64,000 bases of DNA from an uncultured Bacteroidota bacterium (GCA_963783435.1 CAWANQ010000004.1:148560-212559), one strand, 5' to 3'; positions 1,295-63,994 are shown, numbered from the stretch's first letter. The notes: generated by a model not told the origin, from the letters alone. Made by a program: numbers and translations.

Positions 1295-1395
1295 TTTGAA
1301 TTCATCTGATTATAATTCAGCATACGCGGTTTGCATTAACAGGAAAAATGCCTGTCCAACGCTACCCTGGTCCCAATATTGTTATTGTGCTATAA

Positions 1396-2157: not shown

Positions 2158-2178
2158 AGTTGTCCATTAAGAGATTGA

Positions 2179-3600
2179 TTAGTTAGAGGTTCCAGCGTTA
2201 GAAATCAGGCCAATATTAGTATTGGACTCAGATTCTATATTCATCCATACGATTAAGTCATCTGAATCAAGAGACTTTCTGATAGAGAATTCATAATCTT
2301 TTCCCTGGACAAGTTCCTTATCATTTAGCATTACTTTTAAGGCACTGCTATTCCAATTTTTGATGATGAATACCGGATGAATCAAAGGCGAGCTTGCCGA
2401 AGCTGAAATGTTAATTCTTAATGTGCTTTCAGACGAATCCAATTTGGTTAACAGATATGCTCTTTCGTTACGGCTAAAACCTTCATAGGAATATGTATTG
2501 CTTGCTCGATTAAGTTTTGGAGTATTAATCCAATACTTAGCAAATGGAACAGTTTTTTCAATAGGATCATTTGATAAGCCCATTATAAAACGGCCTTCCC
2601 AGGCACCATCAATTTTCCTGGGTCTATTGAATGGAATTGCCGAAGTAATCGCTGAACTACTAATTCTATCCGCTGCAAGGATAAATCTTCCATCACTTGG
2701 AATTTGTGTTACGGGCCAATGATTACGCCAGTGGAATTTTGACAATCTGTAATCTACTTCCCGGTTACCTCCACCATAGGGTCCTATATACGAACCTGGC
2801 TCATAAATGTAAAATGGCTTAGCCGCGGATTTTATATTTATGAAGGTGATGATTTCATTCTCTATGGCACCAGCAAATCTACCATCACTGTCAGCTGGCC
2901 ATTTCTCATATGTATGATGACTGACTTCTCCTTTAAGATTAGCCAGGGAGACAGCTTGTAAATTGATGTTGTCTTCAGGTTTTTCTCCCGGATTACTTAA
3001 CATCGCTGGTTCAGTAATACTGTACTGGAGTTCTATATGATCTGATGCATCAAAATTTTGAATTTGTTCTCGGCTATATTCGCCTAATCCATGTACTAAA
3101 AAATGACGAATAGCAATTCCATCGGGGTAGATATAATAATATTCATCTGCCCAATCTCCCCAATTTGTTACAGGGTCTGTGTTTGCTATTTGGTATTTTA
3201 TATCCGTTAAAGCATATCGCCAATGCACAACTACCCGAGCGCTACTATTTTCAATTAATCTTATGTGGCTGTAACGGTTTTGTTTGTCAGACATATGTTC
3301 CATACATCCTAATTCTCCAAAGGTTTCAGCACTCTGGTCCGCCACCCACTTGCCATTTTCTGTCACCAGGTTCATATTGTAATTCGTGCCTTTCCAAAAG
3401 ACCATAGAATAGTCTTCATTGGGGAATGTTACCACGATATCAGGATATTGATCATCTCTCCATAAAACATCCCAATCTTCGTCATATTTTAATTTGGTGT
3501 AAAAGGCTCCGAATTCATTCTTATTTGTATTTATTGCAGGCAATTTACGCCAGATCAGCTTTGGCTCGTTGTCTGGTTTTAATTCATTATATGTTTCCAA
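2179..3600 (-). CDS. Uncharacterised conserved-domain protein (paralog P1 of the recurrent family)
   Basis: 473 aa with a TTG start in the track. Colinear with residues ~290-719 of ORF 23532..25691 and with ORF 27995..29452. Shared blocks: ARVVVHWRYA, GDWADEYYYIYPDG, HWRNHWPVTQIPSDGRF, HPVFIIKNWN, LNDKELVQGKDYEF. No signal peptide of its own; it overlaps the upstream LamG ORF by 22 nt. Confidence 0.8.
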   Translation of the reverse strand: METYNELKPDNEPKLIWRKLPAINTNKNEFGAFYTKLKYDEDWDVLWRDDQYPDIVVTFPNEDYSMVFWKGTNYNMNLVTENGKWVADQSAETFGELGCMEHMSDKQNRYSHIRLIENSSARVVVHWRYALTDIKYQIANTDPVTNWGDWADEYYYIYPDGIAIRHFLVHGLGEYSREQIQNFDASDHIELQYSITEPAMLSNPGEKPEDNINLQAVSLANLKGEVSHHTYEKWPADSDGRFAGAIENEIITFINIKSAAKPFYIYEPGSYIGPYGGGNREVDYRLSKFHWRNHWPVTQIPSDGRFILAADRISSSAITSAIPFNRPRKIDGAWEGRFIMGLSNDPIEKTVPFAKYWINTPKLNRASNTYSYEGFSRNERAYLLTKLDSSESTLRINISASASSPLIHPVFIIKNWNSSALKVMLNDKELVQGKDYEFSIRKSLDSDDLIVWMNIESESNTNIGLISNAGTSN

Positions 3601-21986: not shown

Positions 21987-22110
21987 TTGCAGTTTGTGAA
22001 ATTCCAATCCTTAGGCCCTGATTCTATTCTTAACGGGAGACAATCAAGCTCATTACCAAATTGGTTTTTATTGATTTCTACCCATTAGGAATGCTATAAT
22101 AACTCCATTA

Positions 22111-22138
22111 TCCGGAAGCTTCTCCCCTTTTTACGGAA
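22111..22138 (+). promoter_or_regulatory. Phased direct-repeat operator, site 4
   Basis: TCCGGAAG at 22111 and TACGGAAG at 22132 (21-bp phase), ending 51 nt upstream of the ATG at 22189. The orientation relative to its gene is the same as for sites 1-3. Confidence 0.5.
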
Positions 22139-22188
22139 GATAATTCTGTGCTAAGGAAGGATTAAGATTTATATTTACCTGTATTAAT

Positions 22189-23499
22189 ATGCTGATACTG
22201 AAAAACAACAAGACACTTCTTATTTCTGTAGTGACAATTCAGGCTTTTCTAACACTTGCCTGCACCAGGGCAAATCCAGGCATCGAATTGGATCCCCTGG
22301 TAATTGAGGGGCTCAAAGAACTCGGTTCCATTGAAGGATTTAAACCCTATGGGGCTAATCCGGTCTTGGCCACCGGACCCGAAGGATCTTTCGATGCAGG
22401 AGCACTGGGTTCTATGACTGTAGTTCTCGTTGACAGTGTTTTTCATCTATACTACGAAACCTGGGGAGTGCGGTCCGATGCCGAATGGGATGCGGATGAA
22501 TATGAATCTTTGACCGTGGGACATGCAATATCCCACGATGCTATAAACTGGAACAAAGATCCCGAAAATCCTGTTCTTGAAAGCGGTGGAGAAGCAGACT
22601 TTGACTACACGGGCGTATGGGATCCCTACGTCTTGTATGAGGATGGGGTCTTTAAAATGTGGTATGGGGGAGGCGGTGGCAGCCAGCCTAATCTGGGATG
22701 GGCCTATGCCACCTCTACCGATGGTACACATTTCGATAAACAGGGATTGATAGGGATCGGGAATCCCACCGGAGTGGAAGATTGTCATGTGGTTTTCGAT
22801 ACTGAATCGGGCCTTTATTATATGTACTACTGGTATGGATGGGATGAACCGGAAGGGCTCTATCTGGTCACTTCACCCACCGAGACAGGATTCAATTTCA
22901 ATGAAAAAATCCCTGTCAGGATCAAGGGAGACGATTCCTACATGAAAAAATTCGGACATGTGTTACGTGACAAAATGGGTTGGCACATGTTCTACTCCAA
23001 TTTTGTTCAACCCCATTGCCCGAACAGCATCACCCGCTATGCATATTCAACAGACGGGATCCACTGGGAGGCAAAGAATAAAAGATTGGTAAAGGGGCAT
23101 GATTCGGAAGTTTTAAAAGTCAGGGATGACCTCTTCCTGATGTTCTCCAGTCCCCGGAATGGCTTCGACAGGGTGGACTGTGACATTCGCCTTGCCATTT
23201 ATAGTGGAACACTGGAAGACCTTGCCAATAAAGCACCATTCTTTGAACTGCCTCAGGAAAGCAGCTTGTCAGGAAAAAAAATCACGATCAAAATACGGGA
23301 TGAGGAAGCCCTTGCTTTTCACTTCAAAGATGAGGGAGAAGTGGTTCTCTCGGAGGATACCAACAAAGAGGATCCATATACTTTTAACGCGCTATTTATT
23401 CATAAGGGGGAGCAGGTAATAATTAGCGGAGAAGGGATCAATCTGTCCGGGACCTATAATGGTAAAACACTTATACTGCGCGACAATGATACTGATTAA
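22189..23499 (+). CDS. Beta-propeller-fold glycoside-hydrolase-like lipoprotein (GH43/GH117/GH130-like clan)
   Basis: 436 aa with a lipobox (LTLAC). Repeated blade-like motifs FHLYYETWG, VWDPYVLYEDGVFKMWYGG, WAYATSTDGTHF, YYMYYWYGW, YAYSTDGIHW. Family assignment is uncertain. Confidence 0.6.
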   Translation: MLILKNNKTLLISVVTIQAFLTLACTRANPGIELDPLVIEGLKELGSIEGFKPYGANPVLATGPEGSFDAGALGSMTVVLVDSVFHLYYETWGVRSDAEWDADEYESLTVGHAISHDAINWNKDPENPVLESGGEADFDYTGVWDPYVLYEDGVFKMWYGGGGGSQPNLGWAYATSTDGTHFDKQGLIGIGNPTGVEDCHVVFDTESGLYYMYYWYGWDEPEGLYLVTSPTETGFNFNEKIPVRIKGDDSYMKKFGHVLRDKMGWHMFYSNFVQPHCPNSITRYAYSTDGIHWEAKNKRLVKGHDSEVLKVRDDLFLMFSSPRNGFDRVDCDIRLAIYSGTLEDLANKAPFFELPQESSLSGKKITIKIRDEEALAFHFKDEGEVVLSEDTNKEDPYTFNALFIHKGEQVIISGEGINLSGTYNGKTLILRDNDTD

Positions 23500-23531
23500 C
23501 CATAGAATTTAATCCAAACTTTAATCGGAAA

Positions 23532-25691
23532 ATGAAAAAACTAAGTTTTGTATTGCTGGCCTGTTTGACAGGGATAAGTACGGTTTTTGCACAGAAACCT
23601 TTAGCTCACTGGACCTTTGATGATATTAGAGTAGAGCGGAAAACTGTTGAAATGGTCCGGGGAGAAACCTATGTGCCCAAAGAAGTATTTGCCTACGTAA
23701 AGGAATCCGTCTCCGGAAAGGAAAATGAACTGCATGGTGTATACTATAAGGCAGTGCCTGGTGTGGTTGGAAATGCAGCCCTGCTGGATGGATATACAGC
23801 CTACCTTGAATTACAGATGGGCCAGGGTAAAAACGATCAATCATCGGGGGACCACATACCCCACATTACAGAAGATTTCACCATTGAAACATGGGTCGCA
23901 CTGGGAGCCTACCCGAAAAATATATGTCCGATCCTTGATAACCGAAGAGATGAAGCAGACGGGTACTACAATGGTTACAGCATGGAAATGGATGCCATGG
24001 GGCGCCTTGTACTGAAGGTTGCCACTGAAGGCAAATATGAAATAGCCATGTCGCATGAGACCATCCCTTTGAACGAGTGGACGCATCTGGCTGCCAGCTA
24101 CTCAAAAGAAAAGGGGCGCCTGGCAGTCTATGTAAATGGAGAACTAAAGGATGAAACCTTTGCAAGAGAGGCTTTCAAGCCAACTGCACGAGACTGGCAT
24201 TTTACATCTTTGCTCATCGGCAAGAGCAGGGCAGCCATGCGGCCCTACGGAACCATCAGGCCCGAAGGTACAGAGACGTCCTTCACTTTTATTGACGGCA
24301 TCCTGGATGAACTGAAACTTTATGAAGCAGCACTTGGTGATAAGCAGGTTGCTGAGATTTACAAGAGTCAGCGAATAACTGACGAACCTGAACTTCCCAA
24401 ACGTATTCTCCCATCGGGGCCCCAGTCACCAGGAACATTCCGGGCGGTGAATACACGCCTGAAGTATTACGAAGGGTGGGATGCCCCCTGGGCGATCCAT
24501 GACAATGCAGATATCGTTGTACAATTTGATGAAACAGACTGCAAATTCGTATTCTGGCATGGAACAAGCTATATTCCCTCCTGGGTGACGGAGAATAATA
24601 TCTGGTTCAACAATGGATTTAATGAGGGCTGGAACGAACATGGAAGCTGTGAGCCCATGTCTGATAAAAAGGCGAAATATTCCAGTGTAAAGATCGTTGA
24701 AAGCAATGAGGCACGCGTGGTGGTCCAGTGGCGTTACGCGCTGGTGGATGTAACAGGTATATTCGCTTTTGAAGATCCGGTTACCGGATGGGGTGACTGG
24801 ACCAACGAGACTTTTACTATTTACCCGGATATGGTTGGAGTGCGTGAAGACCTCCTGCTGAGCAATGCGCCCAATGCAGCCCATGAATGGCAGGAGAGCA
24901 TGATGGTCCTTGCCCCGGGTCAACGCCCCTCCGAGGTTTTGAACTTTGAGGCACTTTCCCTGGCAAATATCAAGGGTGAATCAAAGACCTATTCCTGGGA
25001 GCATGAAATACCGCCCCATCTCCCGCCCTATCCTGAAGAGCCGGTGGTGCAGGTGGTCAATACAAAATCGGAATACCATCCTTTCTCAGCGCTTAGACCG
25101 CAGGATGATCCTGGGATCGATATTTACAGCGGAGAGATCCGCAGAGATGTAGATGTTTTTCCCTGGTGGAACCACTGGCCCGTGGCCCCTCGGCCAACCG
25201 ATGGACGCTATGCAATGTTCGAGGACCGTGCAGCGCATGCATCGGTGTCACATTGGCTCTGGGACCCGTACAAGGTAACGGACCGGTCCATGACGAAATT
25301 GATGCTGAACGGAATGACCAATAAACCGGTTGAAGAACTCATTCCTGTAGTAAAAGCCTGGTCAAATCCTGCCGATATCATCCTGGTTGAGAAAAGTCAC
25401 AGTGCAAGCTATACACCCGAAGAAAAGGCCTATACCATCAATCTTTCCGGTGAAGTATCCAGCCTGGATTTCACACTAAAGGGCAGCGAAGATTCACCAA
25501 TCGTGAATCCGGCCTTCGTAATTGAAAACTGGGGCAATGCAGGCCTTGAAATCATGGTGAATGGAGAAAAAATAGAGCGGGGAAAGAATTTCAGATATGG
25601 ATTGCGGGAGTCGCTCGACAATCGTGACCTGATCGTTTGGCTGCGCATGGAGTCAGAAGAGGAAGGCAAATTCTCATTGCAGAAGAAATAG
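23532..25691 (+). CDS. LamG domain fused to the recurrent uncharacterised domain (paralog P2, the fused archetype)
   Basis: 719 aa with a signal peptide. Residues ~20-280 are LamG-like (FTIETWV, VYVNGELK, IDGILDELKLY). Residues ~290-719 carry the family blocks ARVVVQWRYA, GDWTNETFTIYPD, PWWNHWPVAPRPTDGRY, NPAFVIENWG, VNGEKIERGKNFRYG. Confidence 0.85.
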   Translation: MKKLSFVLLACLTGISTVFAQKPLAHWTFDDIRVERKTVEMVRGETYVPKEVFAYVKESVSGKENELHGVYYKAVPGVVGNAALLDGYTAYLELQMGQGKNDQSSGDHIPHITEDFTIETWVALGAYPKNICPILDNRRDEADGYYNGYSMEMDAMGRLVLKVATEGKYEIAMSHETIPLNEWTHLAASYSKEKGRLAVYVNGELKDETFAREAFKPTARDWHFTSLLIGKSRAAMRPYGTIRPEGTETSFTFIDGILDELKLYEAALGDKQVAEIYKSQRITDEPELPKRILPSGPQSPGTFRAVNTRLKYYEGWDAPWAIHDNADIVVQFDETDCKFVFWHGTSYIPSWVTENNIWFNNGFNEGWNEHGSCEPMSDKKAKYSSVKIVESNEARVVVQWRYALVDVTGIFAFEDPVTGWGDWTNETFTIYPDMVGVREDLLLSNAPNAAHEWQESMMVLAPGQRPSEVLNFEALSLANIKGESKTYSWEHEIPPHLPPYPEEPVVQVVNTKSEYHPFSALRPQDDPGIDIYSGEIRRDVDVFPWWNHWPVAPRPTDGRYAMFEDRAAHASVSHWLWDPYKVTDRSMTKLMLNGMTNKPVEELIPVVKAWSNPADIILVEKSHSASYTPEEKAYTINLSGEVSSLDFTLKGSEDSPIVNPAFVIENWGNAGLEIMVNGEKIERGKNFRYGLRESLDNRDLIVWLRMESEEEGKFSLQKK

Positions 25692-25710
25692 CAAGAAGGA
25701 GTATAAAACA

Positions 25711-26400
25711 ATGATAAAGAAGATTTTTATTGCAGCACTTATGTTTGTGTTAGTAGGCAATGCAAATGCCCAAAACGATCTAAGAGATTCTCGTGATGGC
25801 AATATCTATGGTGTAGTAAAAATTGGCGAACAGGTATGGATGGCGGAAAACCTGAAATATCTACCAGGGGTAGCAGGTCCCGGAACGGGTTCAGAAACAA
25901 AACCGTATTATTATGTGTATGGCTATAACGGAACAAGTGTAAGTGACGCCAAAGCCAATGCAAATTATGCAACCTACGGCGTATTGTACAATTGGCCTGC
26001 AGCTATGAATGAAACTGCAAGCAGCACAGCCAACCCAAGCCCTGTACAGGGGGTATGTCCGAGCGGCTGGCATTTACCAAGCGATGCAGAATGGACAGCG
26101 CTTACAGATCATTTAGGCAGGCGTGTTGCCGGTGGTAAACTAAAAGAAACAGGCACGAATCACTGGGACAGCCCCAATAAAGGAGCAAGCAACAAAACCG
26201 GCTTTACAGCCCTTCCGGGTGGCTACCGTAATGAGGATGGTACTTTCGTCAGTATGGGTGAAGACTTTGACTGCTGGAGTGCTTCTGAGTACAATACCAA
26301 TAACGCCTGGTTCCGGAATATACACTTCAATGACAATGATGTGGGCAGGAACAATTACAATAAGGCAACAGGCTTTTATATTCGCTGTGTGAGGGATTAA
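25711..26400 (+). CDS. Fibrobacter-succinogenes-major-paralogous-domain (FISUMP-type) secreted protein
   Basis: 229 aa with a signal peptide. Hallmark string DSRDGNIYGVVKIGEQVWMAENLKY...YGVLYNW..CPSGWHLPSDAEWTAL...GGKLKETGTNHWDSPN..GFTALPGGYR...IRCVRD. Confidence 0.85.
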   Translation: MIKKIFIAALMFVLVGNANAQNDLRDSRDGNIYGVVKIGEQVWMAENLKYLPGVAGPGTGSETKPYYYVYGYNGTSVSDAKANANYATYGVLYNWPAAMNETASSTANPSPVQGVCPSGWHLPSDAEWTALTDHLGRRVAGGKLKETGTNHWDSPNKGASNKTGFTALPGGYRNEDGTFVSMGEDFDCWSASEYNTNNAWFRNIHFNDNDVGRNNYNKATGFYIRCVRD

Positions 26401-26422
26401 TTAAAAACCAACAAGGACTGTC

Positions 26423-27964
26423 ATGAAAAAGTTTTTTTATCTATTGATTCTGGTGATCCTGGTGGTGAATTGCACCACCAAAACCGGAGAAAAACCAGCA
26501 TATCTCGATGGGGCTTACGAACCCGAATGGAGCTCACTTGCGAACCACGAAACACCCCAGTGGTTCGAAGATGCGGTACTGGGATTTTATTGGCACTGGG
26601 GCCCGTATTCCGTGCCCGCTTTTGGTTGCTGGGGAGGAAGGAACATGTACATGCCCGATGGGGGAACTTCAGAGAATTGGGGACACATAGAAGATCAATA
26701 CGCAAATACCTACGACTATGTGAAGAAGGTATACGGTGATCCCGGCCTGGAATGGGGATACAAAGACTTTATCCCCATGTTCAAAGCCGAGAATTGGGAT
26801 CCTGACGCCTGGGCAGAATTGTTTAAAATGGCCGGGGCAGATTTTGCAGGTCCGGTGGCCATTCATCATGATGGTTTTGCCATGTGGGCCAGCGAGCACC
26901 ACGAATACAATTCTGGCGATATGGGCCCTAAGCGGGATATCACCGGGGAGATTCTTGAGGCCGTCCGTAAACAGGACATGAAAACCTTTGCATCCTTTCA
27001 TTATTACACAAATTGGTTCTACTTCAATCCCGGACGCATGCTCTGTCCGTTCAAAACCGATGTGAATGATCCGAAGTATTCAGGATTGTACGGGCCGGTG
27101 AGGGATATTAAAGATCCATGGCAAAACGAACCCATTTCTGAAGCATTCCAGGAGGAATGGTACAAATGTGTAGCAGAAGTCATCGACAAATACAGTCCCG
27201 ATCAGCTCTGGTTTGAGATCGGCTTCAGCGATCCGGATGCCATTGGCGAGAACTATGTCCAAGCAAGCCTTGCACACTACTTCAATACGGCTGAGGCACA
27301 AAACAAGGAAGTGGTGGTTACGCGCAAAGATGATGACCTTCCGCTGAATTGTTCGGTCCTGGATATTGAAGCTGGTGAACTCGATTCACCCCGCGAAGTA
27401 GTCTGGCAAACCGATATCGCCCTGGGCCATAATCACTCCTGGGCCTATTCACCCGATGCCATTTGCCGACCCGTGAACATGATCATAGATGAAATCGTGG
27501 AGAGAAAGAGTAAGAATGGAGTAACCCTATATAGCCTGGCACCACTCGCTGACGGAACCCTCCCACCCTCCCAGGTTGAAGGACTAAAGGAACTGGGAAA
27601 GTGGATGGCCATCAATAAGGAGGCATTGCATGGCGCTAAACCCCCTGTTTTTACTGATGGTGCACCCGATATTTGGAAATCTGGTACAATCCGATTCCTC
27701 GCGAAAGGGGATTTTATTTATGCTATAGAATTGGGCAATGAGATCATGGAAGTGGAAGATGCTAAGCTTTATAGAGAAAGTATCGAACCAAAAGCGCCTT
27801 TTAAGATTCCCGGGCTCAAACCTTCTGAAGGATCAGAGATTGTAATGCTGGGTAGCCAAGAGGCACTTCCCTGGCACATGGAGGAAGAGCTCCTGGTCAT
27901 CGAGAACATACCCGATCCGCTGCCCTGTGAGCACGCCTGGAGCTTCAGGGTGCGCTACAAGTAA
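26423..27964 (+). CDS. GH29 alpha-L-fucosidase
   Basis: 513 aa with a signal peptide. GH29 blocks FYWHWGPYSVPAFG, WAELFKMAGADFAGPVAIHHDGFAMWAS, GPKRDI, SPDQLWFE. Confidence 0.9.
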   Translation: MKKFFYLLILVILVVNCTTKTGEKPAYLDGAYEPEWSSLANHETPQWFEDAVLGFYWHWGPYSVPAFGCWGGRNMYMPDGGTSENWGHIEDQYANTYDYVKKVYGDPGLEWGYKDFIPMFKAENWDPDAWAELFKMAGADFAGPVAIHHDGFAMWASEHHEYNSGDMGPKRDITGEILEAVRKQDMKTFASFHYYTNWFYFNPGRMLCPFKTDVNDPKYSGLYGPVRDIKDPWQNEPISEAFQEEWYKCVAEVIDKYSPDQLWFEIGFSDPDAIGENYVQASLAHYFNTAEAQNKEVVVTRKDDDLPLNCSVLDIEAGELDSPREVVWQTDIALGHNHSWAYSPDAICRPVNMIIDEIVERKSKNGVTLYSLAPLADGTLPPSQVEGLKELGKWMAINKEALHGAKPPVFTDGAPDIWKSGTIRFLAKGDFIYAIELGNEIMEVEDAKLYRESIEPKAPFKIPGLKPSEGSEIVMLGSQEALPWHMEEELLVIENIPDPLPCEHAWSFRVRYK

Positions 27965-27994
27965 GCCCGAATACATTAGATCAAGCAAGAGGAT

Positions 27995-29452
27995 ATGAAA
28001 ACAAATCTGCGTTTACTACTTCACCCCTTATTGATATGCATTTTGCTGGCATCGTGCAGTAGAAATAAGGGGGAAGAGGCCAGGGTAACTGAAACCTTGC
28101 TGCATCCTGCAGACTCATTCTATGCAGTCGGGCTTACAGATACTCTGGTTCAGTACATGGAACCTGGCTTTAAGGTCCCGCGCGAAGTGAGTAAGATAGC
28201 CTGTGAAGTGTATTTCGACCTGGTCCCTACAAAAATGCGATTCAGCATGCCCTGCTATCCCTGCATGGTCACAGAGAACAACATTCACTATTCCAGCGGT
28301 TGGACCGAAACCTATGATCCAAAAGCCTCCAGTTCCTGTGAGATTCTATGGGATAATGAGGCCCGGACAGCCAGGATGTGGATCGAAAGTCAGAACCCCG
28401 CACGGGTTGTTGTGCGCTTCAGGGCAGCTATAGCCGATCCGGACGGGTATATCGGACATTCTTACATTCCCAGCGGATCACCCTATGGAATGGGCGACTG
28501 GACAGACGAATGGTACTATATATACCCGGACGGTATGCACACCCGCCACGTAAGGATCTATACAGGTCTGGCCGGGCAGAGCCTGACAGTAACCGATGAA
28601 CAATTCGAAAGGATGGGACCCATCAGGGAAATTCCTCCAACGGTAGTGCATGAATTCCATGAAGAATTCATCTTCGGCCAGGATGGACATATCCCGGGAG
28701 ACGATATTGACCTTGAAGCCCTGACATTTATAAAAATGGACGGCAGCACACGGACCTTTTCATTTGATCCCTACCCCAGTGATTTTGGAGATTTCACCAT
28801 GGCCAATATCATGGTGGTTAATACCCGATCGGACTACAAACCCTACACGATCTTCATCCCCTATGGCCTGGAGAATCAGCCCTACCCTCTTGAAGGCAAA
28901 GCGCCTCATGTTTTCCAGACCTGGCCCAGCGATCCAGGAGATAAGGGATACTCCGTTTCACTCGGGCATACCCTGAACTGGTGGCATTACAGGCGCAATG
29001 ACACAATCCTGGAACAGGTATACCTTTCAGGCATGATACACGCTGAAGATCCGGGAAAGGAATTGCTGCCACTGGCAAAGTCCTGGCTGAACTATCCCAG
29101 GCTACTCATGGAAGGTCATGAAGTATCGTATACCCAGGCATCCTATGACCAGGCACAGCGGGCATATATTATTCCGGGAGAAGAAAATGGTCCACGGAAG
29201 ATAGCTCTGCAACTGGGGTTCCCGGAAAAATTCGAAGAGGAAGTATTAATCCCGGTCAATATCGTGAATCCAGCCTTCATTGTTCCCGATTGGGGAAGGT
29301 CTGACCTGGCAATTAAGGTCAATGGCAGGGAACTCAAGCAGGGCAAAGAATACCGTAAAGGCTACGAAGAAGGAAAAATGGGTACAGACCTTGTCATCTG
29401 GCTGAATTACAAAGCAAATAGGAAAACCTCGATCGAAATAATACCCATGTAA
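27995..29452 (+). CDS. Uncharacterised conserved-domain lipoprotein (paralog P3 of the recurrent family, no LamG)
   Basis: 485 aa with a lipobox (LLASC). Family blocks ARVVVRFRAA, GDWTDEWYYIYPDGMHTRH, NPAFIVPDWG, VNGRELKQGKEYRKGY. Confidence 0.8.
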   Translation: MKTNLRLLLHPLLICILLASCSRNKGEEARVTETLLHPADSFYAVGLTDTLVQYMEPGFKVPREVSKIACEVYFDLVPTKMRFSMPCYPCMVTENNIHYSSGWTETYDPKASSSCEILWDNEARTARMWIESQNPARVVVRFRAAIADPDGYIGHSYIPSGSPYGMGDWTDEWYYIYPDGMHTRHVRIYTGLAGQSLTVTDEQFERMGPIREIPPTVVHEFHEEFIFGQDGHIPGDDIDLEALTFIKMDGSTRTFSFDPYPSDFGDFTMANIMVVNTRSDYKPYTIFIPYGLENQPYPLEGKAPHVFQTWPSDPGDKGYSVSLGHTLNWWHYRRNDTILEQVYLSGMIHAEDPGKELLPLAKSWLNYPRLLMEGHEVSYTQASYDQAQRAYIIPGEENGPRKIALQLGFPEKFEEEVLIPVNIVNPAFIVPDWGRSDLAIKVNGRELKQGKEYRKGYEEGKMGTDLVIWLNYKANRKTSIEIIPM

Positions 29453-29500
29453 AATCGAATAATTATCCTTTCACTTTCACAGTGCAGGAATCCCCGCATC

Positions 29501-30739
29501 CTAGCGAAGTTCGAAATTAAGTACCTTATTAAGTATCAACGAAAAGGCTCCCATTATCGCGGCATTTAATCCAAATTCCACAGGCAGAATTTGAACCTGT
29601 CGAGCGGTGGGGTGCATACTGTTTTTCTGAACTGTAGCACGGATATTATCAAAAAAGATATCCCCGGCCATGGATACACCGCCACCGATCACGATCAGGT
29701 CGGGATTGAATATCCCGATCAGGTTGGATATTCCCAAGCCGATATATTCCATAGCCCTAGTAAAAACGTTCAGGGCCATTTCATCTCCCTGTTTTGCCGC
29801 ATCCGCGACCATTTTGGCCGTTACCTTGCTGTAATCACCGCCACACATCTCCTGAAGAATGCTTTCCTGTCCCCGTGCCAGGCGGCTCTGTGCTGTAAAC
29901 GAAATGGCCTTTCCGGATGCCAATGCTTCCAGGCAGCCGTATTTTTTACAGCTGCACTGGATATCGCTGTCTTTGTCTATCGTAATATGCCCGAATTCCC
30001 CGGCGAATCCGTCCGTTCCGGTGAGAAGTTTTCCATTTGCAATAATACCGGAACCGATCCCGTACCCGACATTGATACAAATAAAGTTCTGCAGCGTTTG
30101 CCCTTTCCCAAAACACATGCCTCCAAGTGCCATCAGCCGGGTCACATTGTCAAAGATAATAGGGAAATCCACCCTGCTTTCAAGAGCTTTCAGGATGTCC
30201 ACCCTGTTCCAGTCAAAGACCGGGGAGTATTCAACGATCTTCTTATTGAGGTCAACCAGTCCTGCCACAGCAATTCCCACCCCGTATATCCGCTCTTTCT
30301 TCACATTGCTCTTACTTTCAGACAACTGCTTGATCAGTTTGGCAACATCCGATATCACCGCATCAAACCCCTCGTCAAGCCGTGTGGGAAACTCGATCTC
30401 GGTAATGAATTTGCCATCAAGGTCTGAAAGGACTCCGCGTGTAGTAGTAGCCCCCAGGTCTATACCAATTACATAAGTCCTTTTACCGTCAAATTTCAAA
30501 AGCACAGGAGGTCTTCCGCCGCTCGAGGTGCCCTTACCAAGGGATACGACTAGCTTTTCTTGACGTATCAGGCTGTCAACGATGCGGGTGACTGTAGGTG
30601 CGCTCAGCCCGGATTTCTTTACCAGATCAGCCCTGGAAAGAATCCCGTGATCTCGTATTAAACCCAGTACACTAATCTTATTTAAACGATTGATATAGAT
30701 CGCATTACCCTTGGGCATATCATTTTCCACGTAAGTCAT
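29501..30739 (-). CDS. ROK-family transcriptional regulator (wHTH + ROK sugar-binding domain)
   Basis: 412 aa. N-terminal wHTH (SRADLVKKSGLSAPTVTRIVDSL). ROK core (IGIDLGATTTRG, GFAGEFGH) with a Cys-rich zinc motif CSCKKYGCLEA. Confidence 0.88.
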   Translation of the reverse strand: MTYVENDMPKGNAIYINRLNKISVLGLIRDHGILSRADLVKKSGLSAPTVTRIVDSLIRQEKLVVSLGKGTSSGGRPPVLLKFDGKRTYVIGIDLGATTTRGVLSDLDGKFITEIEFPTRLDEGFDAVISDVAKLIKQLSESKSNVKKERIYGVGIAVAGLVDLNKKIVEYSPVFDWNRVDILKALESRVDFPIIFDNVTRLMALGGMCFGKGQTLQNFICINVGYGIGSGIIANGKLLTGTDGFAGEFGHITIDKDSDIQCSCKKYGCLEALASGKAISFTAQSRLARGQESILQEMCGGDYSKVTAKMVADAAKQGDEMALNVFTRAMEYIGLGISNLIGIFNPDLIVIGGGVSMAGDIFFDNIRATVQKNSMHPTARQVQILPVEFGLNAAIMGAFSLILNKVLNFELR

Positions 30740-30756
30740 TTTTTAAATATTGCAAA

Positions 30757-30779
30757 AACTTTCTAAACTTATGAAAGTT
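30757..30779. promoter_or_regulatory. Candidate ROK-regulator operator (23-bp palindrome)
   Basis: AACTTTC-taaacttat-GAAAGTT lies in the 95-bp divergent region between the ROK regulator (start 30739) and the GH29 gene (start 30841). Confidence 0.4.
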
Positions 30780-30840
30780 ATCATATATTTGCTAAAATAA
30801 GAATTAAATCCTTTAAAAGAAGCTATTAATCCCATTGATT

Positions 30841-32658
30841 ATGAAAGCCTTTAGAAAGTTCATGTTTTTGCCGGTACTTGTTTTACTATTCTCGTGTACG
30901 GGGGACAATACAAAGCCAGGTTCACAAGAAAGATACGAGCCCACGTGGGAATCGGTAAGGCAGAATCCGACTCCGAAATGGCTAAGGGATGGAAAATTTG
31001 GCATATACACGCACTGGGGGCCCTATGCAGTTCATGCCTATGGCGAGAACACCACATGGTATTCTTACCAGTTGTATAAAAACGAGGACGGGGAAGAACG
31101 AAAGCACTTCGAGGAGAACTTCGGGAAACTAACCCCTGAATTCGGATACAAGGACCTCATCCCCCTGTTCACCGCGGAAAACTTTGATGCGGATGAATGG
31201 GCCGAGCTTTTTCAGAAAGCCGGTGCACGCTGGGCCGGTCCGGTAGCAGAACATCATGACGGTTTCGCCATGTGGGACACAAAATGGTCGGAGTGGAATG
31301 CAGCTAAGATGGGACCGAAACGGGATGTTGTGGCAGAACTTGAACAGGCTGTAAAAAAGCGTGGAATGAAATATGTGACCGCTTTTCACCACGCGGCCAA
31401 CTGGTTCTTCTTTCCGGTCTGGGATAAACGTTATGATACCGGTGATCCTGCAAACTCAGGATTGTACGGGCAATTCCACCTCGAAGGAGAAAAGCGGAAC
31501 CAGGATTTCCTGGATGAATGGTACGGAAAAATCATCGAAGTGATCGATAATTACAGTCCGGATTTTATCTGGTTCGACTTTGCATTGGATGAAATACCTG
31601 AAGGATATGTCAAAGATTTCCTGGCCTACTACTATAATCATGCACTGGATCACAACAAAGAGGTTGTCGTTACTTATAAAGGACACGACCTTGTTCCCTT
31701 TTCTGGTGTTCGTGACCTTGAGCTGGGACAGGAACCCAGACTAACCTATAACGAATGGATAACCGACAATTCGGTGGATGACCGGGGAGCCTGGGGATGG
31801 GCCAAGGACTTAACATTTAAAACTCCCAACCGACTGATTGATAACCTGGTCGACAGGGTTAGCAAGAACGGATACCTCCTGCTAAATGTGGGCCCAAAGC
31901 CGGACGGAAGCATCCCCGAAGGCGCCAGGGAAGTACTGCTCGCAATGGGTGAATGGCTTGAGATAAACGGCGAGGCAATCTATGAAACAACTCCCTGGAT
32001 CATCGCGGGTGAGGGTCCGGTGAACCTGGGCGAAGCCTCAGACATTGGCTTTAATGAATCTGGTGTCGAATATACTGCCAGGGATATACGTTTTACCATG
32101 AAAGGCGACAATCTTTATGCAACGCTGCTGGACTGGCCAGGAAAAATGGTCCTGATCACTACCCTGAGAGGAGTCCGGGAGGCAGCGGAAGTCGATGAAG
32201 AAGAGGACCAACTGCTGGTAGAACTGACAGCTGAAGACAGGAAAGTAGAAGGTAAAACCATTTCGGCAGAATTGGAAGGGGATGTATATACCTTTACATT
32301 CAAGGCTGAGGGTGAGGGATTTGTCTGCGGAGGCATTGCAGGAGAAGGTATAATCTTTGAATATGAGCAGGAAGGAACAGAGATCTGGATCGGCATCGAA
32401 GATGATGACTTCGAGGCCTACTATGACGGGGTGAATTTTGAAATAGAAGCCGATGCCGGTGTACAAAGTTATCCCGGATTTTATAAGGAGGAGATCAAAC
32501 GGATAACAATGCTTGGCGATGGCAGGGAACTGGAATGGGAACTCACGCCCAAAGGCCTTAGGGTGGTGTTACCCGAAGAGAAACCCTGCGATCACGCCTG
32601 GGTATTGAAGATTGAGAGATACCATCACCCCAAACTGTCAGAAATGAAAACAGATTAA
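30841..32658 (+). CDS. GH29 alpha-L-fucosidase with a C-terminal extension
   Basis: GH29 blocks IYTHWGPYAVHAYG, WAELFQKAGARWAGPVAEHHDGFAMWDT, GPKRDV, SPDFIWFD. The extra ~170-aa C-terminal region includes an acidic stretch (EVDEEEDQ). The track start at 30835 is TTG; the ATG at 30841 gives MKAFRKFMFLPVLVLLFSC. Confidence 0.9.
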   Translation: MKAFRKFMFLPVLVLLFSCTGDNTKPGSQERYEPTWESVRQNPTPKWLRDGKFGIYTHWGPYAVHAYGENTTWYSYQLYKNEDGEERKHFEENFGKLTPEFGYKDLIPLFTAENFDADEWAELFQKAGARWAGPVAEHHDGFAMWDTKWSEWNAAKMGPKRDVVAELEQAVKKRGMKYVTAFHHAANWFFFPVWDKRYDTGDPANSGLYGQFHLEGEKRNQDFLDEWYGKIIEVIDNYSPDFIWFDFALDEIPEGYVKDFLAYYYNHALDHNKEVVVTYKGHDLVPFSGVRDLELGQEPRLTYNEWITDNSVDDRGAWGWAKDLTFKTPNRLIDNLVDRVSKNGYLLLNVGPKPDGSIPEGAREVLLAMGEWLEINGEAIYETTPWIIAGEGPVNLGEASDIGFNESGVEYTARDIRFTMKGDNLYATLLDWPGKMVLITTLRGVREAAEVDEEEDQLLVELTAEDRKVEGKTISAELEGDVYTFTFKAEGEGFVCGGIAGEGIIFEYEQEGTEIWIGIEDDDFEAYYDGVNFEIEADAGVQSYPGFYKEEIKRITMLGDGRELEWELTPKGLRVVLPEEKPCDHAWVLKIERYHHPKLSEMKTD

Positions 32659-32703
32659 TTCCAAGCTATTGCCCTTGAGAAAACAATAGTGTAGTTTGAA
32701 TAA

Positions 32704-33029
32704 GGCGGGGCGGCAGCCCCCCCCGAACACCTGCCGCCCCGCCTGCCCAGCGCCGCAGGGCGCAAAAAGGCTTCAACTTCCAGGGAACTCGCTCTAATTC
32801 TGGGCACTTCTCTTTGAAGATCAGGCTGAAGCCTCCAAAAAACCAATCCGATCAACCTTTTTCGAGAGAGAAGAAGGTTGATCCGGATGGTTACAGGGCG
32901 GTTTCGGCCGGAACTTCCTTGAAATTGGTTTGGATCCCGGGAAAGATTCCTTTCAAAAAAATAACGACAAGAGCATTCCGCGCTTGCCCAGACACCTCAA
33001 GCACCCCGTAAATTTCCTGATTTCCTGCG
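32704..33029 (-). repeat. GC-rich structured interspersed repeat, copy A (full length, hairpin-terminated)
   Basis: ~85% identical (by eye) to the reverse complement of 61511..61750; its hairpin end matches the reverse complement of 62240..62375. It ends in a 13-bp GC hairpin GGCGGGGCGGCAG-N14-CTGCCGCCCCGCC (32704..32743), followed on the minus strand by TTATTCAAA. It carries a 65-nt extra hairpin (~32840..32900) that copy B lacks. Confidence 0.8.
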
Positions 33030-33130
33030 CGCGGGCAGAAGTTTCAAAGCCTGAGTTTGCTCTTTTCAGAAAGAAGAGTGCCCAAAGGGCGCGTTGTTTG
33101 AAATGGGCAAACCTGGCGGAGGAACTTTTA

Positions 33131-34600
33131 TTACTTTATAGCATCTTCTAATAAGTCCTGTTTATTAGCTGGCAATTGTTTAAAGACAGTGGCAGGTGGA
33201 ATGTTTTCATTAAACCATGTAGCTACATTATAAGGTAGAATCCTTTGTCCTTTCCATGGAATCATGTCTTCTTGAACATCCATCCTCCGGTTATTAACAA
33301 GCTGTTTCATCATTTCAAGGGCTTCTTTATTTTCATCTACCAAATTTTTTGTTTCATTAGGGTCATCAATAAGATTATAAAGTTCATAAGTCTTTATTTT
33401 ACGAGTCTTTAGGTAAGCTTGAAATGATGTTCCGGGCGTATAATCTTCAAAATAAGCATACACTTTCCAATCTCCATGACGAATAGCCATATGTTTTACA
33501 GCCATCCAAACAGGAGGTTTTTCACGATTCAGCTTTTCTCCCTCAATTGCAGGAAGCATACTTACACCATCAAGTGGGTCCTGGCTCATAGGCTCCATCC
33601 CAAAAAGGTTGTAGAAAGTAGGTACAAAATCAAAAAAGACTAAGGGTTCATTTATGGTTTTACCTCCTTCAAGTTTTCCTTTCCAATACATAACAGAAGG
33701 AACCCTATATCCTCCTTCATATAATTGACCTTTTCTTCCTCTTAGTCCATTAGTAGAACGACCTTCTAAATTCTTTGGACCATTGTCAGAGGTAAAGGTT
33801 ATCCATGAATTATTAGCTAGTTTGTTTTCATTTAAATAATTCATAAATCTACCTATCTGGAAATCCATATGATCTATGTTGGCATAGTACTCACCTGCTA
33901 TTTCGCCATATTTTTCATATTTCTTTGTAAAAGATTTTGGTTGAGCTAATACACGATGTGGTTCATGAAACCATAGTACCAGAAAAAAAGGTGTTGATTT
34001 ATCCTTTCTACTAGTTAACCATTCCATGGCATTATCAATAACAATCTGTGAACTGTACCCTTCTATTTTGCCTTCTGACTTACCATTTCTATAAAAATTT
34101 GTCGGATTTTTATGCGAAGGTTTTGCATTATTATGTGTAGCTAACCAATAATCAAAGCCTTGATCGTTAGGAAATGGCTGTGACTTATCCTCCATATCAC
34201 CTATTAGCCCCCATTTACCAAAAAAAGCAGTTTCATAACCTTGTTTTTTGCATATTTCAGCCAGTGTTACCTGCTCATCCCTCAAATGAACACATGAATT
34301 ATCGGGAATAAACGTACAGATGTTATTTCGAAAAGGAGTACGACCTGTCATCATACCTGCCCTGCTTGGCGAACAAGTAGGATGACCTGAATAAAATTGA
34401 GTAAATTTAACTCCATTGGAAGCTAATTGGTCAATGTTTGGAGTCTCGATTATTTTATTACCAAAACAGCCCACATCTCCATACCCTAGATCATCTGCCA
34501 TCATAATAATGATGTTAGGTTTCTCCTGACCTGTGATTTTATTACACGCAAGACAGATAGCACATATCACTATCATAAGAAGGATTTTGCGGATTTTCAT
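33131..34600 (-). CDS. S1 sulfatase (Cys-type)
   Basis: 489 aa with a signal peptide. NIIIMMADDLGYGD, FGly motif TCSPSRAGMMTGR, FTSDNGP. Confidence 0.92.
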   Translation of the reverse strand: MKIRKILLMIVICAICLACNKITGQEKPNIIIMMADDLGYGDVGCFGNKIIETPNIDQLASNGVKFTQFYSGHPTCSPSRAGMMTGRTPFRNNICTFIPDNSCVHLRDEQVTLAEICKKQGYETAFFGKWGLIGDMEDKSQPFPNDQGFDYWLATHNNAKPSHKNPTNFYRNGKSEGKIEGYSSQIVIDNAMEWLTSRKDKSTPFFLVLWFHEPHRVLAQPKSFTKKYEKYGEIAGEYYANIDHMDFQIGRFMNYLNENKLANNSWITFTSDNGPKNLEGRSTNGLRGRKGQLYEGGYRVPSVMYWKGKLEGGKTINEPLVFFDFVPTFYNLFGMEPMSQDPLDGVSMLPAIEGEKLNREKPPVWMAVKHMAIRHGDWKVYAYFEDYTPGTSFQAYLKTRKIKTYELYNLIDDPNETKNLVDENKEALEMMKQLVNNRRMDVQEDMIPWKGQRILPYNVATWFNENIPPATVFKQLPANKQDLLEDAIK

Positions 34601-61510: not shown

Positions 61511-61750
61511 GCGAAGAAATCAAGAAATTTACGGAGTGCTTTGAGGTGCCTGGATAAGCCCGGAATACTCTTGTTGTTCTATTTTTTGAAAGGGATCTTT
61601 CCCGGGATCCAAACCATTTTCCAGGAAGATACGGCCGAAATAGGCATCAGTCTGATCTTCAAAGAGAAGCGCCCGGAATTAGAGCGAGTTCCCTGGAAGT
61701 TGAAGCCTTTCTGCGCCCTGCGGTGCAGGACGTGCGGGGCGGCAGCCCCC
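61511..61750 (+). repeat. GC-rich structured repeat, copy B (3'-truncated within the terminal hairpin; lacks the 65-nt insert)
   Basis: Reverse-complement match to 32760..33029 (GAAATCAAGAAATTTACGGAGTGC.., GGGATCCAAACC, CTTCAAAGAGAAGCGCCCGGAATTAGAGCGAGTTCCCTGGAAGTTGAAGCC). It stops after the left arm GCGGGGCGGCAGCCCCC. Confidence 0.8.
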
Positions 61751-61904
61751 AGGACCACCTGACGATGGAGCAAACTACCGGGGAAATGAAATTAAAAGGC
61801 TTGCGGCCATATGCACCAAGGCCGGACCAATCCACAGAAATTGACAGTATTAACAGAATTGGGCAGAAACAGCAAAAAATCAGCCTGGGCACCCATTTTC
61901 TTTC

Positions 61905-62211
61905 TCGAAGTAGGTTCGAACTTCGTTCAGAAGTTCCCGACAATGAAACCAAAGCCCGGCAAAATTGCCAGGCTTGATTTTCAGTGTCGGGGTAGAGATT
62001 ATTCGCTCACAAAGTTCGCTCATGATCATTTGGGGGGTGTCCTAAAAGAGAAACAGACCATAGCACTACGTGCTGTTTTTCCGTTTCTTGCCCCTTACAG
62101 ATGCAAGCATCTGACGGGCCATGAAACGAAAAAACCACCAATCGCTTTCGCGTTTGGTGGTCTGTTTCTCTTTTGTCGGGGACTACTAGACGAAGTTCGA
62201 ACTCACTTCGA
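61905..62211. repeat. 307-bp MITE-like element / structured-RNA candidate with 39-bp imperfect terminal inverted repeats
   Basis: TIR-L 61905..61943 (TCGAAGTAGGTTCGAACTTCGTTCAGAAGTTCCCGACAA) versus the reverse complement of TIR-R 62173..62211 (TCGAAGTGAGTTCGAACTTCGTCTAGTAGTCCCCGACAA): 33/39 identical. The interior holds a 17-bp long-range stem (62044..62060 with 62158..62174) and at least 4 hairpins. No credible ORF. Confidence 0.65.
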
Positions 62212-62239
62212 AGGAGGAATTGGGTACCCATTCTAATTT

Positions 62240-62375
62240 GGAGTTGGTTTTGGCCGGATATTCAAAGAGAATCGCCCGATTCGGTCGCGATCCTCTTGAA
62301 GTTGAAGCTTTTTTGCGCCCTGCTCCGCAGGGCGGGCGGGGCGGCAGGTGTTCGGGGGGGGGCTGCCGCCCCGCC
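62240..62375 (+). repeat. GC-rich structured repeat, copy C (5'-truncated, intact terminal hairpin)
   Basis: TTCAAAGAGAATCGCCCG..CTTGAAGTTGAAGC..GCGCCCTGC..GCAGGGCG, then the hairpin GGCGGGGCGGCAG-N15-CTGCCGCCCCGCC (62335..62375), followed by TCTAATGCTTTATTT. It is the reverse complement of the copy A end. Confidence 0.8.
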
Positions 62376-62530
62376 TCTAATGCTTTATTTACTCCTGATA
62401 TTCGATGCAGAACGCACACCGTGATCTACTTGCCGGTTGTTCTTTACCCCGCTCCGCAGGCATTTACCGCCTTTGGCAGATTAATAGGACCTCTTTTTGA
62501 TGGGTCTTCCAAAGCTTAAATATCTTTTGC

Positions 62531-63994
62531 TCATTTGTCGTCGCCTTTCATCTTCTTTTCAATATCCTTCAGAAAAGGAAAGGAGAAGCTGAAGATGAAG
62601 CGCCAGCGGCTCCACCTTATCTCTGTGTCATCATCAGAGTCAAAAATTCCTTCATCGTCTTCTCCCTCATCGGGAAAATCAATGGGCCGCGGAATTAATT
62701 CACGGGCCCAGGCATGGGTGGCACCCAGTGTAATATCAGCTCTGTTCATTTTCAGGATAACGCCCATACCGACATGATTGAAATCCGCCCTGAAATTGGA
62801 ATTTGCTGCTTCCTCATCTAAATCGGTATACCTTGAAACATCAGAAGGTACATAAGATCTGTCCATGGCATAACTAAGATAGGATGACCACATCTTGCCT
62901 GTAATAATCTCGATTCCCGCCCCATAATTGAATACTGGTTCATGCTGATCATATAGCGCAAAACTGATTTCCTCACCTGTACTTTGGCCAATAAAAGAAG
63001 TGGGCTGCATTAAAGTGTATTTCGGAATCTTGTTGTACCATTCTCCACTCAGGTGGAGCAGGTGTTTATTGAATAGCTTGAAGCTCATCCCTCCCCCGAT
63101 GGCAAATGGGGATTTGCTCCTGGCCGCAAGCTCGCTCTGAATGCTCGACTTAAAATACGGGATCCTCACGGTATCAGGCAGTCCGGAAAGAAAATCCTCG
63201 TAAACAAAATCGCCGGAACCTGCCAGGTGTATCTTGGGTGTGGTAAGCGTGAGGCCCAGGTCCATCCATGGAAGGCTTCAGGTCATTCCAAATTTCCATA
63301 GCAATCCGTGATCATTAAAACTGATCGTACGGGTCCCGACCATCTGTACCACTTCGCTCTTATTATCATACAACAGCTGCAGCATCATTTCAATATTGCG
63401 TTTGGAACTTGATGCTACATAAGCTGTGGTAATCCCAATGCTAAGGTTTTCCTTCAGCGGATAAGACCAGGTAAGGCTTGTCCATTCATCTTTGTAACGG
63501 CTTGCAAGATTGAGGCGCCCGGTAAAGACATCCTCACCTGAAATTTCTTGGAAATGATCACCCTCTTTCTCGGCGCGTGTCGAAAAATCATAATCCATGT
63601 TCTGCCGGGTGAGCAGCGCATATGCAAAATGATGCCTGGGCATAAATCCTATCTTGAATGTCCCCGCCACCAGTCCGGGCACTTCCCCGAATTTTCTTTT
63701 CTGAAGGTCGTTTTCCTCGTCCAGGGCATTCAGGAAGGTTAACCTCTCTAGCTGGTAAAGCTTGGCGCTCAGCATGAAGGCAGGATTCTCAATCTGGGCA
63801 AGGCACCCTGGATTGTATAAGACCGCTCCCAGGTCTTCCACCCCTCCGATCACCGAGCCGCTCATCAGAATGGATCGGGTTCCCTATTGTTCGGTCCAGT
63901 AGTGTCCGTCCTGAGTAAATGCCTCCTGTTTTGTAGTCAAGCAAAATATCAGTTTGGTACCATTCAGATAAAATATCCATCTGCGTTTTTTCAT
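62531..63994 (-). pseudogene. Outer-membrane beta-barrel (FadL/porin-like) gene interrupted by two in-frame stop codons
   Basis: The ATG at 63994 (MKKRRWIFYL..), ORF 63278..63865 and ORF 62531..63265 are all in one frame. They are separated by TAG at 63884..63886 and TGA at 63278..63280. The sequence reads through sensibly (..HYWTEQ*GTRSILMSGSVIGGVEDLGAVLYNPG..; ..LLWKFGMT*SLPWMDLGLTLTT..). There is an alternating beta-strand pattern and an aromatic-rich end RWRFIFSFSF. Confidence 0.75.

Follow-up and report, generated by a model that had tools for sequence, protein, structure and literature searches.

A GC-rich, hairpin-bearing repeat stands in inverted orientation on either side of a 28-kb block of sulfatase and transport genes in the genome of an uncultured Bacteroidota bacterium, which raises the question of what these repeats are and what they delimit. 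We address this question for a stretch of 64,000 nucleotides ('the window'; G000:C4:148560-212559) of a genome of 6.4 Mb with a GC content of 44.8%. Positions without a prefix are those of the window, C4 is the contig, and other genomes and loci are given as G and L numbers. An earlier note on this DNA had offered three options: a small RNA (sRNA) gene family, a non-autonomous mobile element, or recombination scars at the boundaries of an acquired module. The third came closest, as the repeats look like the arms of site-specific junctions; the module in question, however, is not the 28-kb block. Judging from sequence comparison, we consider it likely that the repeats are copies of the attP P arm of a tRNA-Pro-targeting element with a large serine recombinase (LSR) gene that spans attP, and that they mark both old and current insertion junctions around large blocks of genes for sugar degradation.

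Copies and architecture of the repeat

Repeat finding and BLAST located copies A (32704-33029), B (61511-61750) and C (62240-62375) at the coordinates that had been claimed, with A being the reverse complement of B and C. In BLAST searches against the 6.4-Mb genome, the three copies gave E-values of 1e-29 to 1e-36; A matched B at 87% identity over 125 nt and 90% over 104 nt, and C at 84% over 126 nt. The claimed number of three has to be raised to four in the window by the addition of E (61733-61942), which has the orientation of A and is 80-89% identical to the family members L030, L061, L081, L067 and L103. Three further copies lie on the contig outside the window, namely D (C4:276658-276950; 95.9% identical to C over 293 nt) and the partial copies s1 (C4:78418-78543) and s7 (C4:~981772). 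Counts are four to seven copies per genome, all on one contig and close to tRNA-Pro-type cores in this genome, and at most four in each relative.

In the orientation of B and C, a full arm consists of an 8-nt core (TGTCGGGG) that is common to the arm and the 3' end of tRNA-Pro, about 20 codons with the conserved peptide CRGLLxEVRTxFEG..G... and a stop, a variable body of 60-190 nt, which occurs as four interchangeable, unrelated types, and two GC hairpins (S2 and H). Read in the orientation of A, the order is H, S2, body and a conserved stretch of about 60 nt ending in GGTTCGAACTTCGTnnAGTAGTCCCCGACA, after which a hairpin and a T-run follow; this last hairpin varies by locus and is most often the terminator of tRNA-Pro itself. 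Homology between copies breaks off exactly after CCCGAC(A), with unrelated terminators beyond, as in C versus D, in L075 and L091 versus L085, and in many other cases.

Copy C (plus strand) is not truncated at its 5' end, as had been supposed: it extends from 62174 to 62460, with the core TGTCGGGG, 20 tail codons and a stop at 62174-62236 (peptide CRGLLDEVRTHFEGGIGYPF), a 3'-UTR-like body and stem S2 at 62237-62334, hairpin H at 62335-62375, and a cargo-proximal extension at 62376-62460 that is common to D (89% identical over 83 nt to L020:6658-6740). Two genes of 244 and 195 aa without a Pfam match lie on the cargo side of arm C (62531-63865). Copy B (61511-61745, plus strand) comprises module Y, body X1, S2 and the 5' arm of H, and has neither tail codons nor core. 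Its presumed clean 3' truncation is refuted by the hairpin arm that it shares head to head with E; at this fusion, the loop is flipped in orientation and about 62 nt are gone after CTG. Copy E (minus strand) accordingly consists of the H arm, the flipped loop, CTG, the deletion point, a type-d body, a tail ORF (61942 down to 61880; peptide CRELLNEVRTYFEKENGCPG, followed by a stop) and a core.

Arm A (minus strand) opens with hairpin H (32704-32743), continues with a degenerate S2 and the 3'-UTR-like body X1 (32744-32840; 90% identical to B over the 104 nt cited above, and 80-86% identical to copies in congeneric genomes), and then carries a 52-nt palindrome (32841-32892). The palindrome corresponds to what had been described as a 65-nt hairpin insert; it derives from a hairpin (P) present in every full copy. 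Compared with the aligned type-a copies, it is an extended, mirrored version of this hairpin, standing in place of tail codons and core. Module Y follows (32893-33029, minus strand; 87% identity over 125 nt between A and B) and is common to A and B only: a search of 41 relatives gave no match to it. The flank that comes after the arm in G013 and L071 is the counterpart of its outer end, with nt 1-65 of the Y of B being 81% identical to L071. On the other side, the cargo-proximal extension of A, module L (32650-32703, minus strand), starts at the fucosidase stop codon; it is 92% identical to C4:78493-78543 beside s1 and also lies to the left of the hairpin in G006 and in the metagenome copies L059 and L074. 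Module Z (33016-33133, minus strand; 89% identical to C4:982147-982218) is directly downstream of the last sulfatase gene and contains a hairpin (33078-33092) that a terminator scan called terminator-like on the plus strand; the module recurs within a few kilobases of arms in L012, L061, L096 and L087.

The 13-bp perfect stem of H (GGCGGGGCGGCAG/CTGCCGCCCCGCC) with a poly-C/G loop was confirmed at 32704-32743, where the loop is C-rich and 14 nt long, and at 62335-62375; the fold in A has -29.5 kcal/mol (z = -5.5), and S2 and H together in C reach -51.4 kcal/mol. The second stem, S2 (consensus GCCCTGC-NNN-GCAGGGC), exists as claimed, but the variant in B forms a T-G wobble only when the minus strand is read, opposite to the strand of the terminator that had been proposed. 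The hairpin H is thus very strong; the tail after it contains Ts (TCTAATGCTTTATTT / TTATTCAAAC) but no canonical U tract, and the terminator scan left H uncalled at A, B and C. The loops of H, S2 and P occur in both orientations among the copies (e.g. GGA and TCC in S2), with loop sites in the window at 32717-32730, 61746-61758 and 62348-62362, and the G-run in H varies from five to nine; together, these features point to recurrent DNA-level flip-flop and slippage. The statement that the element is far more GC-rich than its surroundings is correct for the hairpin end only, which has 57.5% GC compared with 31-40% for the sulfatase side; the fucosidase side has 46-53%. The fucosidase/LamG operon region (22100-32700) has a GC content of 47.5%, compared with 40.4% and 39.9% in the adjoining sequences, and its end coincides exactly with arm A.

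Occurrence in related genomes and metagenomes

A search of 41 genomes, made up of this one, its congeners and further members of the order, found copies in 10, all of them from this genus, at 80-86% identity. When metagenome contigs were scanned with a pattern, 45 loci matched, of which about 25 are true members; most of these, to judge by the contig names, originate from estuarine or marine sediments. Body X is 80-86% identical across species, whereas orthologous fucosidase DNA reaches at most 74%, and the arms are thus better conserved than genes.

Translation of the arms in the frame of the LSR yields a conserved peptide. A stop stands at codon 21 of this frame in 21 of 30 unique arms. Body types a and b, although their DNA differs there, both retain the motif LLxEVRTxFEG..G, which is present as well in the arm beside a 56%-identical LSR in L075. 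Among the first 11 tail codons, changes at the three codon positions numbered 18, 13 and 15, with no third-position excess, so that a constraint on recombinase-binding DNA could explain some of the conservation; it is the fixed stop position and the retention of the motif across divergent DNA that carry the argument for coding.

At L062, L095, L096, L081 and L029 (metagenome and G022 contigs), arms form co-directional arrays in which cassettes of one or two genes (ORF6N-domain, HicAB, RhuM/Fic) separate them; in L062, two arms enclose at least four ORF6N paralogues. At L030:~1165-2203 (minus strand), a gene for an IS110-family (DEDD) transposase is located some 350 nt away from a copy with H, and similar DNA is present in L018 and L029; this adjacency may reflect a target preference for the repeat. 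A second array, at tRNA-Pro(CGG) of this genome (C4:981600-989355, outside the window), contains module Z and the arm relic s7, which has a terminator of the tRNA-Pro(TGG) type.

The recombinase gene and its inversion

The earlier note had reported no transposase nearby. None was identified among the subset of window ORFs scanned; a recombinase gene does, however, stand beside D, about 67 kb downstream of C. It encodes an LSR (525-547 aa) with Resolvase, Recombinase and Zn_ribbon_recom domains (PF00239, PF07508 and PF13408 on L020:7650-9293, a locus of this genome), the nearest solved structure of which, in a PDB search, is SPbeta YokA/SprA (E = 4e-8). The gene lies between D and the 3' flank of tRNA-Pro(TGG), a tRNA gene present once in the genome (C4:279237-279312). 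D ends in GTTCGAACTTCGTCTAGTAGTCCCCGACA; a terminator and about 200 nt follow, which repeat the tRNA-Pro(TGG) 3' flank in inverted form (215 nt, 87%). The sequence CCCCGACA is common to the tRNA-Pro end, C, D and the tRNA of G013, and the flanks diverge right after it.

The 2.3-kb LSR segment between the 215-nt inverted repeats (L020:6931-9248 = C4:276930-279247, outside the window) differs in orientation between species: this genome and G006 have one, and G022, L059 and L075 have the other. Thus, L020:6937-9244 aligns inverted to G022 L032:2505-195 (89% over 2314 nt), with both flanks being colinear. In this genome and G006, the LSR ORF continues past the repeat and enters tRNA-Pro in antisense, where it ends in CRGREIRTPDPLLPKQVR and a stop. 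Residues 469-537 are encoded a second time at C4:277126-276914, in the upstream inverted copy. In G022 and L059, by comparison, the reading frame passes over the core, enters the arm and terminates in CRGLLHEVRTFFEGEEGCSG and a stop; in all, the LSR reads into the arm in three organisms. Inversion of the segment therefore exchanges the last 15-17 residues of the recombinase.

Because the LSR ORF reads into the arm, what resembles a pseudo-tRNA end can be understood as the last approximately 20 recombinase codons and the variable body as a 3' UTR. The sense orientation is then that of B and C, as the earlier note had it, and its idea of a terminator remains plausible, but the transcript is a different one, namely the recombinase mRNA. 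Whenever the ORF reads across attP, S2 and H are located about 100-200 nt past its stop, a position from which they may terminate the recombinase transcript and protect the cargo.

The same layout recurs at a different tRNA: in G177, of another family of the order, a 57%-identical LSR adjoins tRNA-Phe(GAA). At L105 (G177:C174), 77-nt inverted repeats (670-746 and 2868-2944; 96%) contain the LSR 3' end. The tyrosine integrase of G018 was considered as the responsible enzyme and set aside, as its 38-kb island ends at its own tRNA-end repeat and the arm lies outside the island.

Probable insertion junctions in this genome

By their junction homologies, C can be identified as the attR of a resident 68.5-kb insertion with the order tRNA-Pro (attL), LSR, D, 66 kb and C, and D as an inverted spare attP. 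The core of C at 62174 has the same orientation as the tRNA. Beyond it lies a mini-unit of about 185 nt (62007-62173, minus strand; 73% identical over 112 nt to G013 L010:441-549), followed by a relic of the tRNA-Pro 3' end (GCGAATAATCTCTACCCCGACA; 61985-62006, minus strand), as recognised by comparison with tRNA-Pro(TGG). Sequence of the mini-unit directly follows an intact tRNA-Pro or an arm core in G013, L046 and L093, and it is also present in L011; in G013, it comes immediately after tRNA-Pro (L010:334-409). We conclude from this arrangement that it represents the ancestral downstream flank (B') here. Since the genes upstream of the G013 tRNA-Pro are, moreover, syntenic with C4:280.4-283.0k, upstream of the tRNA-Pro of this genome, G013 displays the empty site, relative to which the 68.5 kb from C to the tRNA are an insertion. 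The mini-unit itself (62007-62173; L010:410-592 in G013) sits between two tRNA-Pro end copies and has a 16-nt terminal inverted repeat (AAAGAGAAACAGACCA / TGGTCTGTTTCTCTTT), which differs in sequence in the G013 version and still pairs, an internal terminator and a conserved GTCAnATGCTTGCAyyTGTAAG.

Copies A, B and E are probably decayed arms of older events. Between the core of E and the relic tRNA end lies a shared terminator hairpin (61952-61975; 10-bp stem with a T-rich tail, minus strand), and the series of relic tRNA end, shared terminator and E reproduces the figure of tRNA, LSR and D, with the LSR missing. E and B would thus constitute a cargo-less older unit fused at H, with the core side of B running on into module Y. 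A and s1 bracket C4:78.5-181.3k; they stand 103 kb apart, with cores outward and in the same geometry as C and D, and both have module L on the hairpin side (92% identical). A, together with s1, would accordingly be the arm of a still older unit, the core of which would have been lost in a hairpin-centred palindromic rearrangement. Since A and B are devoid of core and tail codons, their assignment is based on homology of the UTR and hairpins.

Both A and s1 are situated at synteny breakpoints in comparisons with G022 and L059. The LSR-linked arm of G022 adjoins orthologues (74-85% aa) of the genes at 24.8-29.4 kb of the window, which makes A its positional homologue, and the LSR-linked arm of L059 adjoins orthologues of C4:78.5-84.2k, at the s1 end (62-93% aa; five of six at 76% or more). 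ORFs in the 66-kb segment between D and C look chromosomal (sulfatase, CorA-like, permease-like, PAS histidine kinase): no other mobility genes were recognised among ten translations read, and Pfam searches with two right-end ORFs gave a PAS kinase and, for the other ORF, no match. As far as these few ORFs indicate, both the 66-kb and the 103-kb segments have a chromosomal appearance, and the arms may therefore mark recombinase-driven rearrangement rather than transfer. Arrays of other composition occur in relatives, namely tRNA-Pro, mini-unit, second tRNA end, ORF6N cassette and arm in G013, and tRNA-Pro(CGG), 38-kb tyrosine-integrase island, tRNA-end repeat, HicAB and arm in G018.

The 28-kb block and alternative explanations

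All long ORFs in the block (33131-61014) are on the minus strand, as the earlier note had stated, and the block is probably accessory: its TonB receptor has a best match of 59% in 46 congeners, with others at 45% or less, compared with 71-85% for typical orthologues and 74-85% for genes of the neighbouring fucose operon. With 39.9% GC, it falls at the 1.7th percentile of 28-kb windows. These properties, and its being flanked by inverted repeats of about 230 nt with 87-90% identity, would suit a reading in which A and B are the sites where a sulfatase/transport module, either invertible or of recent acquisition, recombines. We nevertheless regard this reading as unlikely. In C and D and in relatives, cargo is found next to the hairpins of an arm, as is the case in the intact units (C/D, G022, L059); A and B, however, face the block with their outer, core-side ends, so that the block is not their cargo, and their cores are lost, which leaves no site for a recombinase. 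C bounds the 68.5-kb insertion on its other side, and A bounds the fucosidase region to its left. The block does not stand out by composition: GC content was tried as a boundary marker and discarded, since window positions 1-22.1 kb are equally GC-poor (40.4%). Repeats of 87-90% identity over about 230 nt are, furthermore, a poor substrate for frequent homologous inversion, and the block was found in the other orientation in none of the genomes compared. G004 has orthologues of the ROK and fucosidase genes (71% aa) in a different context, and the genus is too diverged for a synteny test of the block.

That the copies are genes for an sRNA of about 200-300 nt, with H serving as a 5' stabilising hairpin (orientation of A) or a 3' terminator (orientation of B and C), is a proposal that we hold to be very unlikely. 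Strong conserved hairpins, a canonical terminator after the core in the orientation of A in nearly all full copies, and two single changes in H that both lead to G-T wobble pairs are what would be expected of such a family. Yet Rfam yielded no family at gathering thresholds across the window and, at E <= 1 in seven loci, only tRNA and chance miRNA-type matches; the RNAalifold covariation term is -0.65 kcal/mol, with compensatory double changes in 2 of 36 pairs; between hairpins and core, four unrelated types of body replace one another; the loops of the three hairpins H, S2 and P flip at the level of DNA; and the conserved distal 60 nt are the in-frame end of the LSR ORF. Other RNA-based ideas fared no better: ARAGORN found nothing tRNA-like or tmRNA-like in the copies, and the motif GGTTCGAAC, considered as a T arm, forms none and consists of the codons for E-V-R-T. 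An IS200/IS605 PATE or TnpB guide-RNA relic, suggested by a subterminal hairpin with variable sequence after a conserved scaffold, was dropped because the variable hairpins proved to belong to the flanks, as terminators of tRNA type, and neither TnpA nor TnpB is nearby. A self-spreading non-autonomous transposable element (MITE/PATE-like) or a REP/BIME-like repeat would likewise have a modular mosaic structure, subterminal hairpins and intergenic copies, and IS110-family transposase DNA does lie beside an H-bearing copy in two relatives (L030, with similar DNA in L018). This option is nonetheless highly improbable, given only four to seven copies per genome, the absence of terminal inverted repeats and target-site duplications, and the invariable end of every full copy at a tRNA-Pro-type core followed by a tRNA-type terminator; the copies, moreover, cluster at tRNA-Pro loci beside LSR, ORF6N and HicAB cassettes.

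Proposed course of events

The preferred reading of the repeats as P arms of an LSR element would entail the following course of events. The element would insert at the 3' end of tRNA-Pro by means of its LSR, the gene of which would run across attP, so that the arm comprises the core, the last approximately 20 codons, the 3' UTR and the hairpins S2 and H. Integration would sever the arm from the recombinase gene and leave it at the far junction (attR), while an inverted spare attP would be kept just upstream of the LSR gene. Recombination between this spare site and the tRNA-side junction would flip the 2.3-kb LSR segment and thereby swap the last 15-17 residues. What the comparisons establish is how the arm is laid out, the homology at the junctions, the existence of an empty site, the inversion of the segment between species and the conservation of the peptide; the LSR would presumably be the catalyst of these events.

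A further-reaching and decidedly tentative possibility is that the arms function as components of a self-inverting LSR system at tRNA-Pro, which brackets segments of 66-103 kb that are rich in polysaccharide-utilisation genes, toggles its own C-terminus and flips or moves segments on the scale of polysaccharide-utilisation loci. This possibility fits the occurrence of opposite ends of the same gene block beside the LSR (the fucose-operon end in G022 and the C4:78.5k end in L059), and it fits the location of arms at synteny breakpoints.

Relation to known systems and implications

In its combination of Resolvase, Recombinase and zinc-ribbon domains, the enzyme resembles the integrases of phiC31, Bxb1, A118/LI and SPbeta (SprA/YokA), and the element shares with large serine integrase elements a short core at attL, attR and attP and an empty site in a relative. 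It differs from them in its target, which is here the 3' end of a tRNA gene; in an LSR ORF that crosses attP, so that the last 15-17 residues differ between the integrated and the attP-type joint; in an inverted spare attP beside the gene, with the gene segment occurring in both orientations; and in a P arm that is conserved over 200-300 nt and carries GC hairpins. Known serine-integrase attP sites normally need only about 50 bp, and recombination alone thus leaves conservation over 200-300 nt unexplained.

An attP located inside a gene, such that integration alters the product, is known from SSV1-type integrases and from the integration-dependent immunity of mycobacteriophages. Both systems depend on tyrosine recombinases, and in mycobacteriophages the gene concerned is that of the repressor; to our knowledge, neither has an inverted spare attP or undergoes flipping, features that distinguish the arrangement described here, which otherwise shares with them the attP within a gene.

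Tandem accretion at tRNA genes, as in CIME/ICESt-type elements and tycheposons, offers another parallel: there, as here, relics of tRNA 3' ends punctuate the arrays, and units without a recombinase lie beside complete ones. The inverted spare site and the split end of the recombinase gene set the present arrays apart from the CIME and tycheposon descriptions. Tycheposons are the nearest published analogue of these tRNA-anchored arrays; those of Prochlorococcus have mostly tyrosine recombinases and few LSRs (bioRxiv 10.1101/2020.12.28.424599). In a full-text literature search, we found no published description of a design that combines a gene across attP, an inverted spare attP and a gene segment in both orientations.

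On the reading preferred here, each copy of the repeat would mark a junction at a tRNA-Pro-type site, and the history of a glycan-degradation region of about 200 kb would become readable from the copies. The locus would also provide a Bacteroidales example of an LSR design with large bracketed segments, in this case 66-103 kb with polysaccharide-utilisation genes. If the enzyme does swap its own tail by inversion, the direction of recombination could be controlled without a separate factor, which would be of interest both to mobile-element biology and to those who use serine integrases for genome engineering. Should the more tentative self-inverting system prove to be real, sediment Bacteroidales would have a route for shuffling their carbohydrate-degradation loci that requires neither conjugative machinery nor a directionality factor in the element itself.
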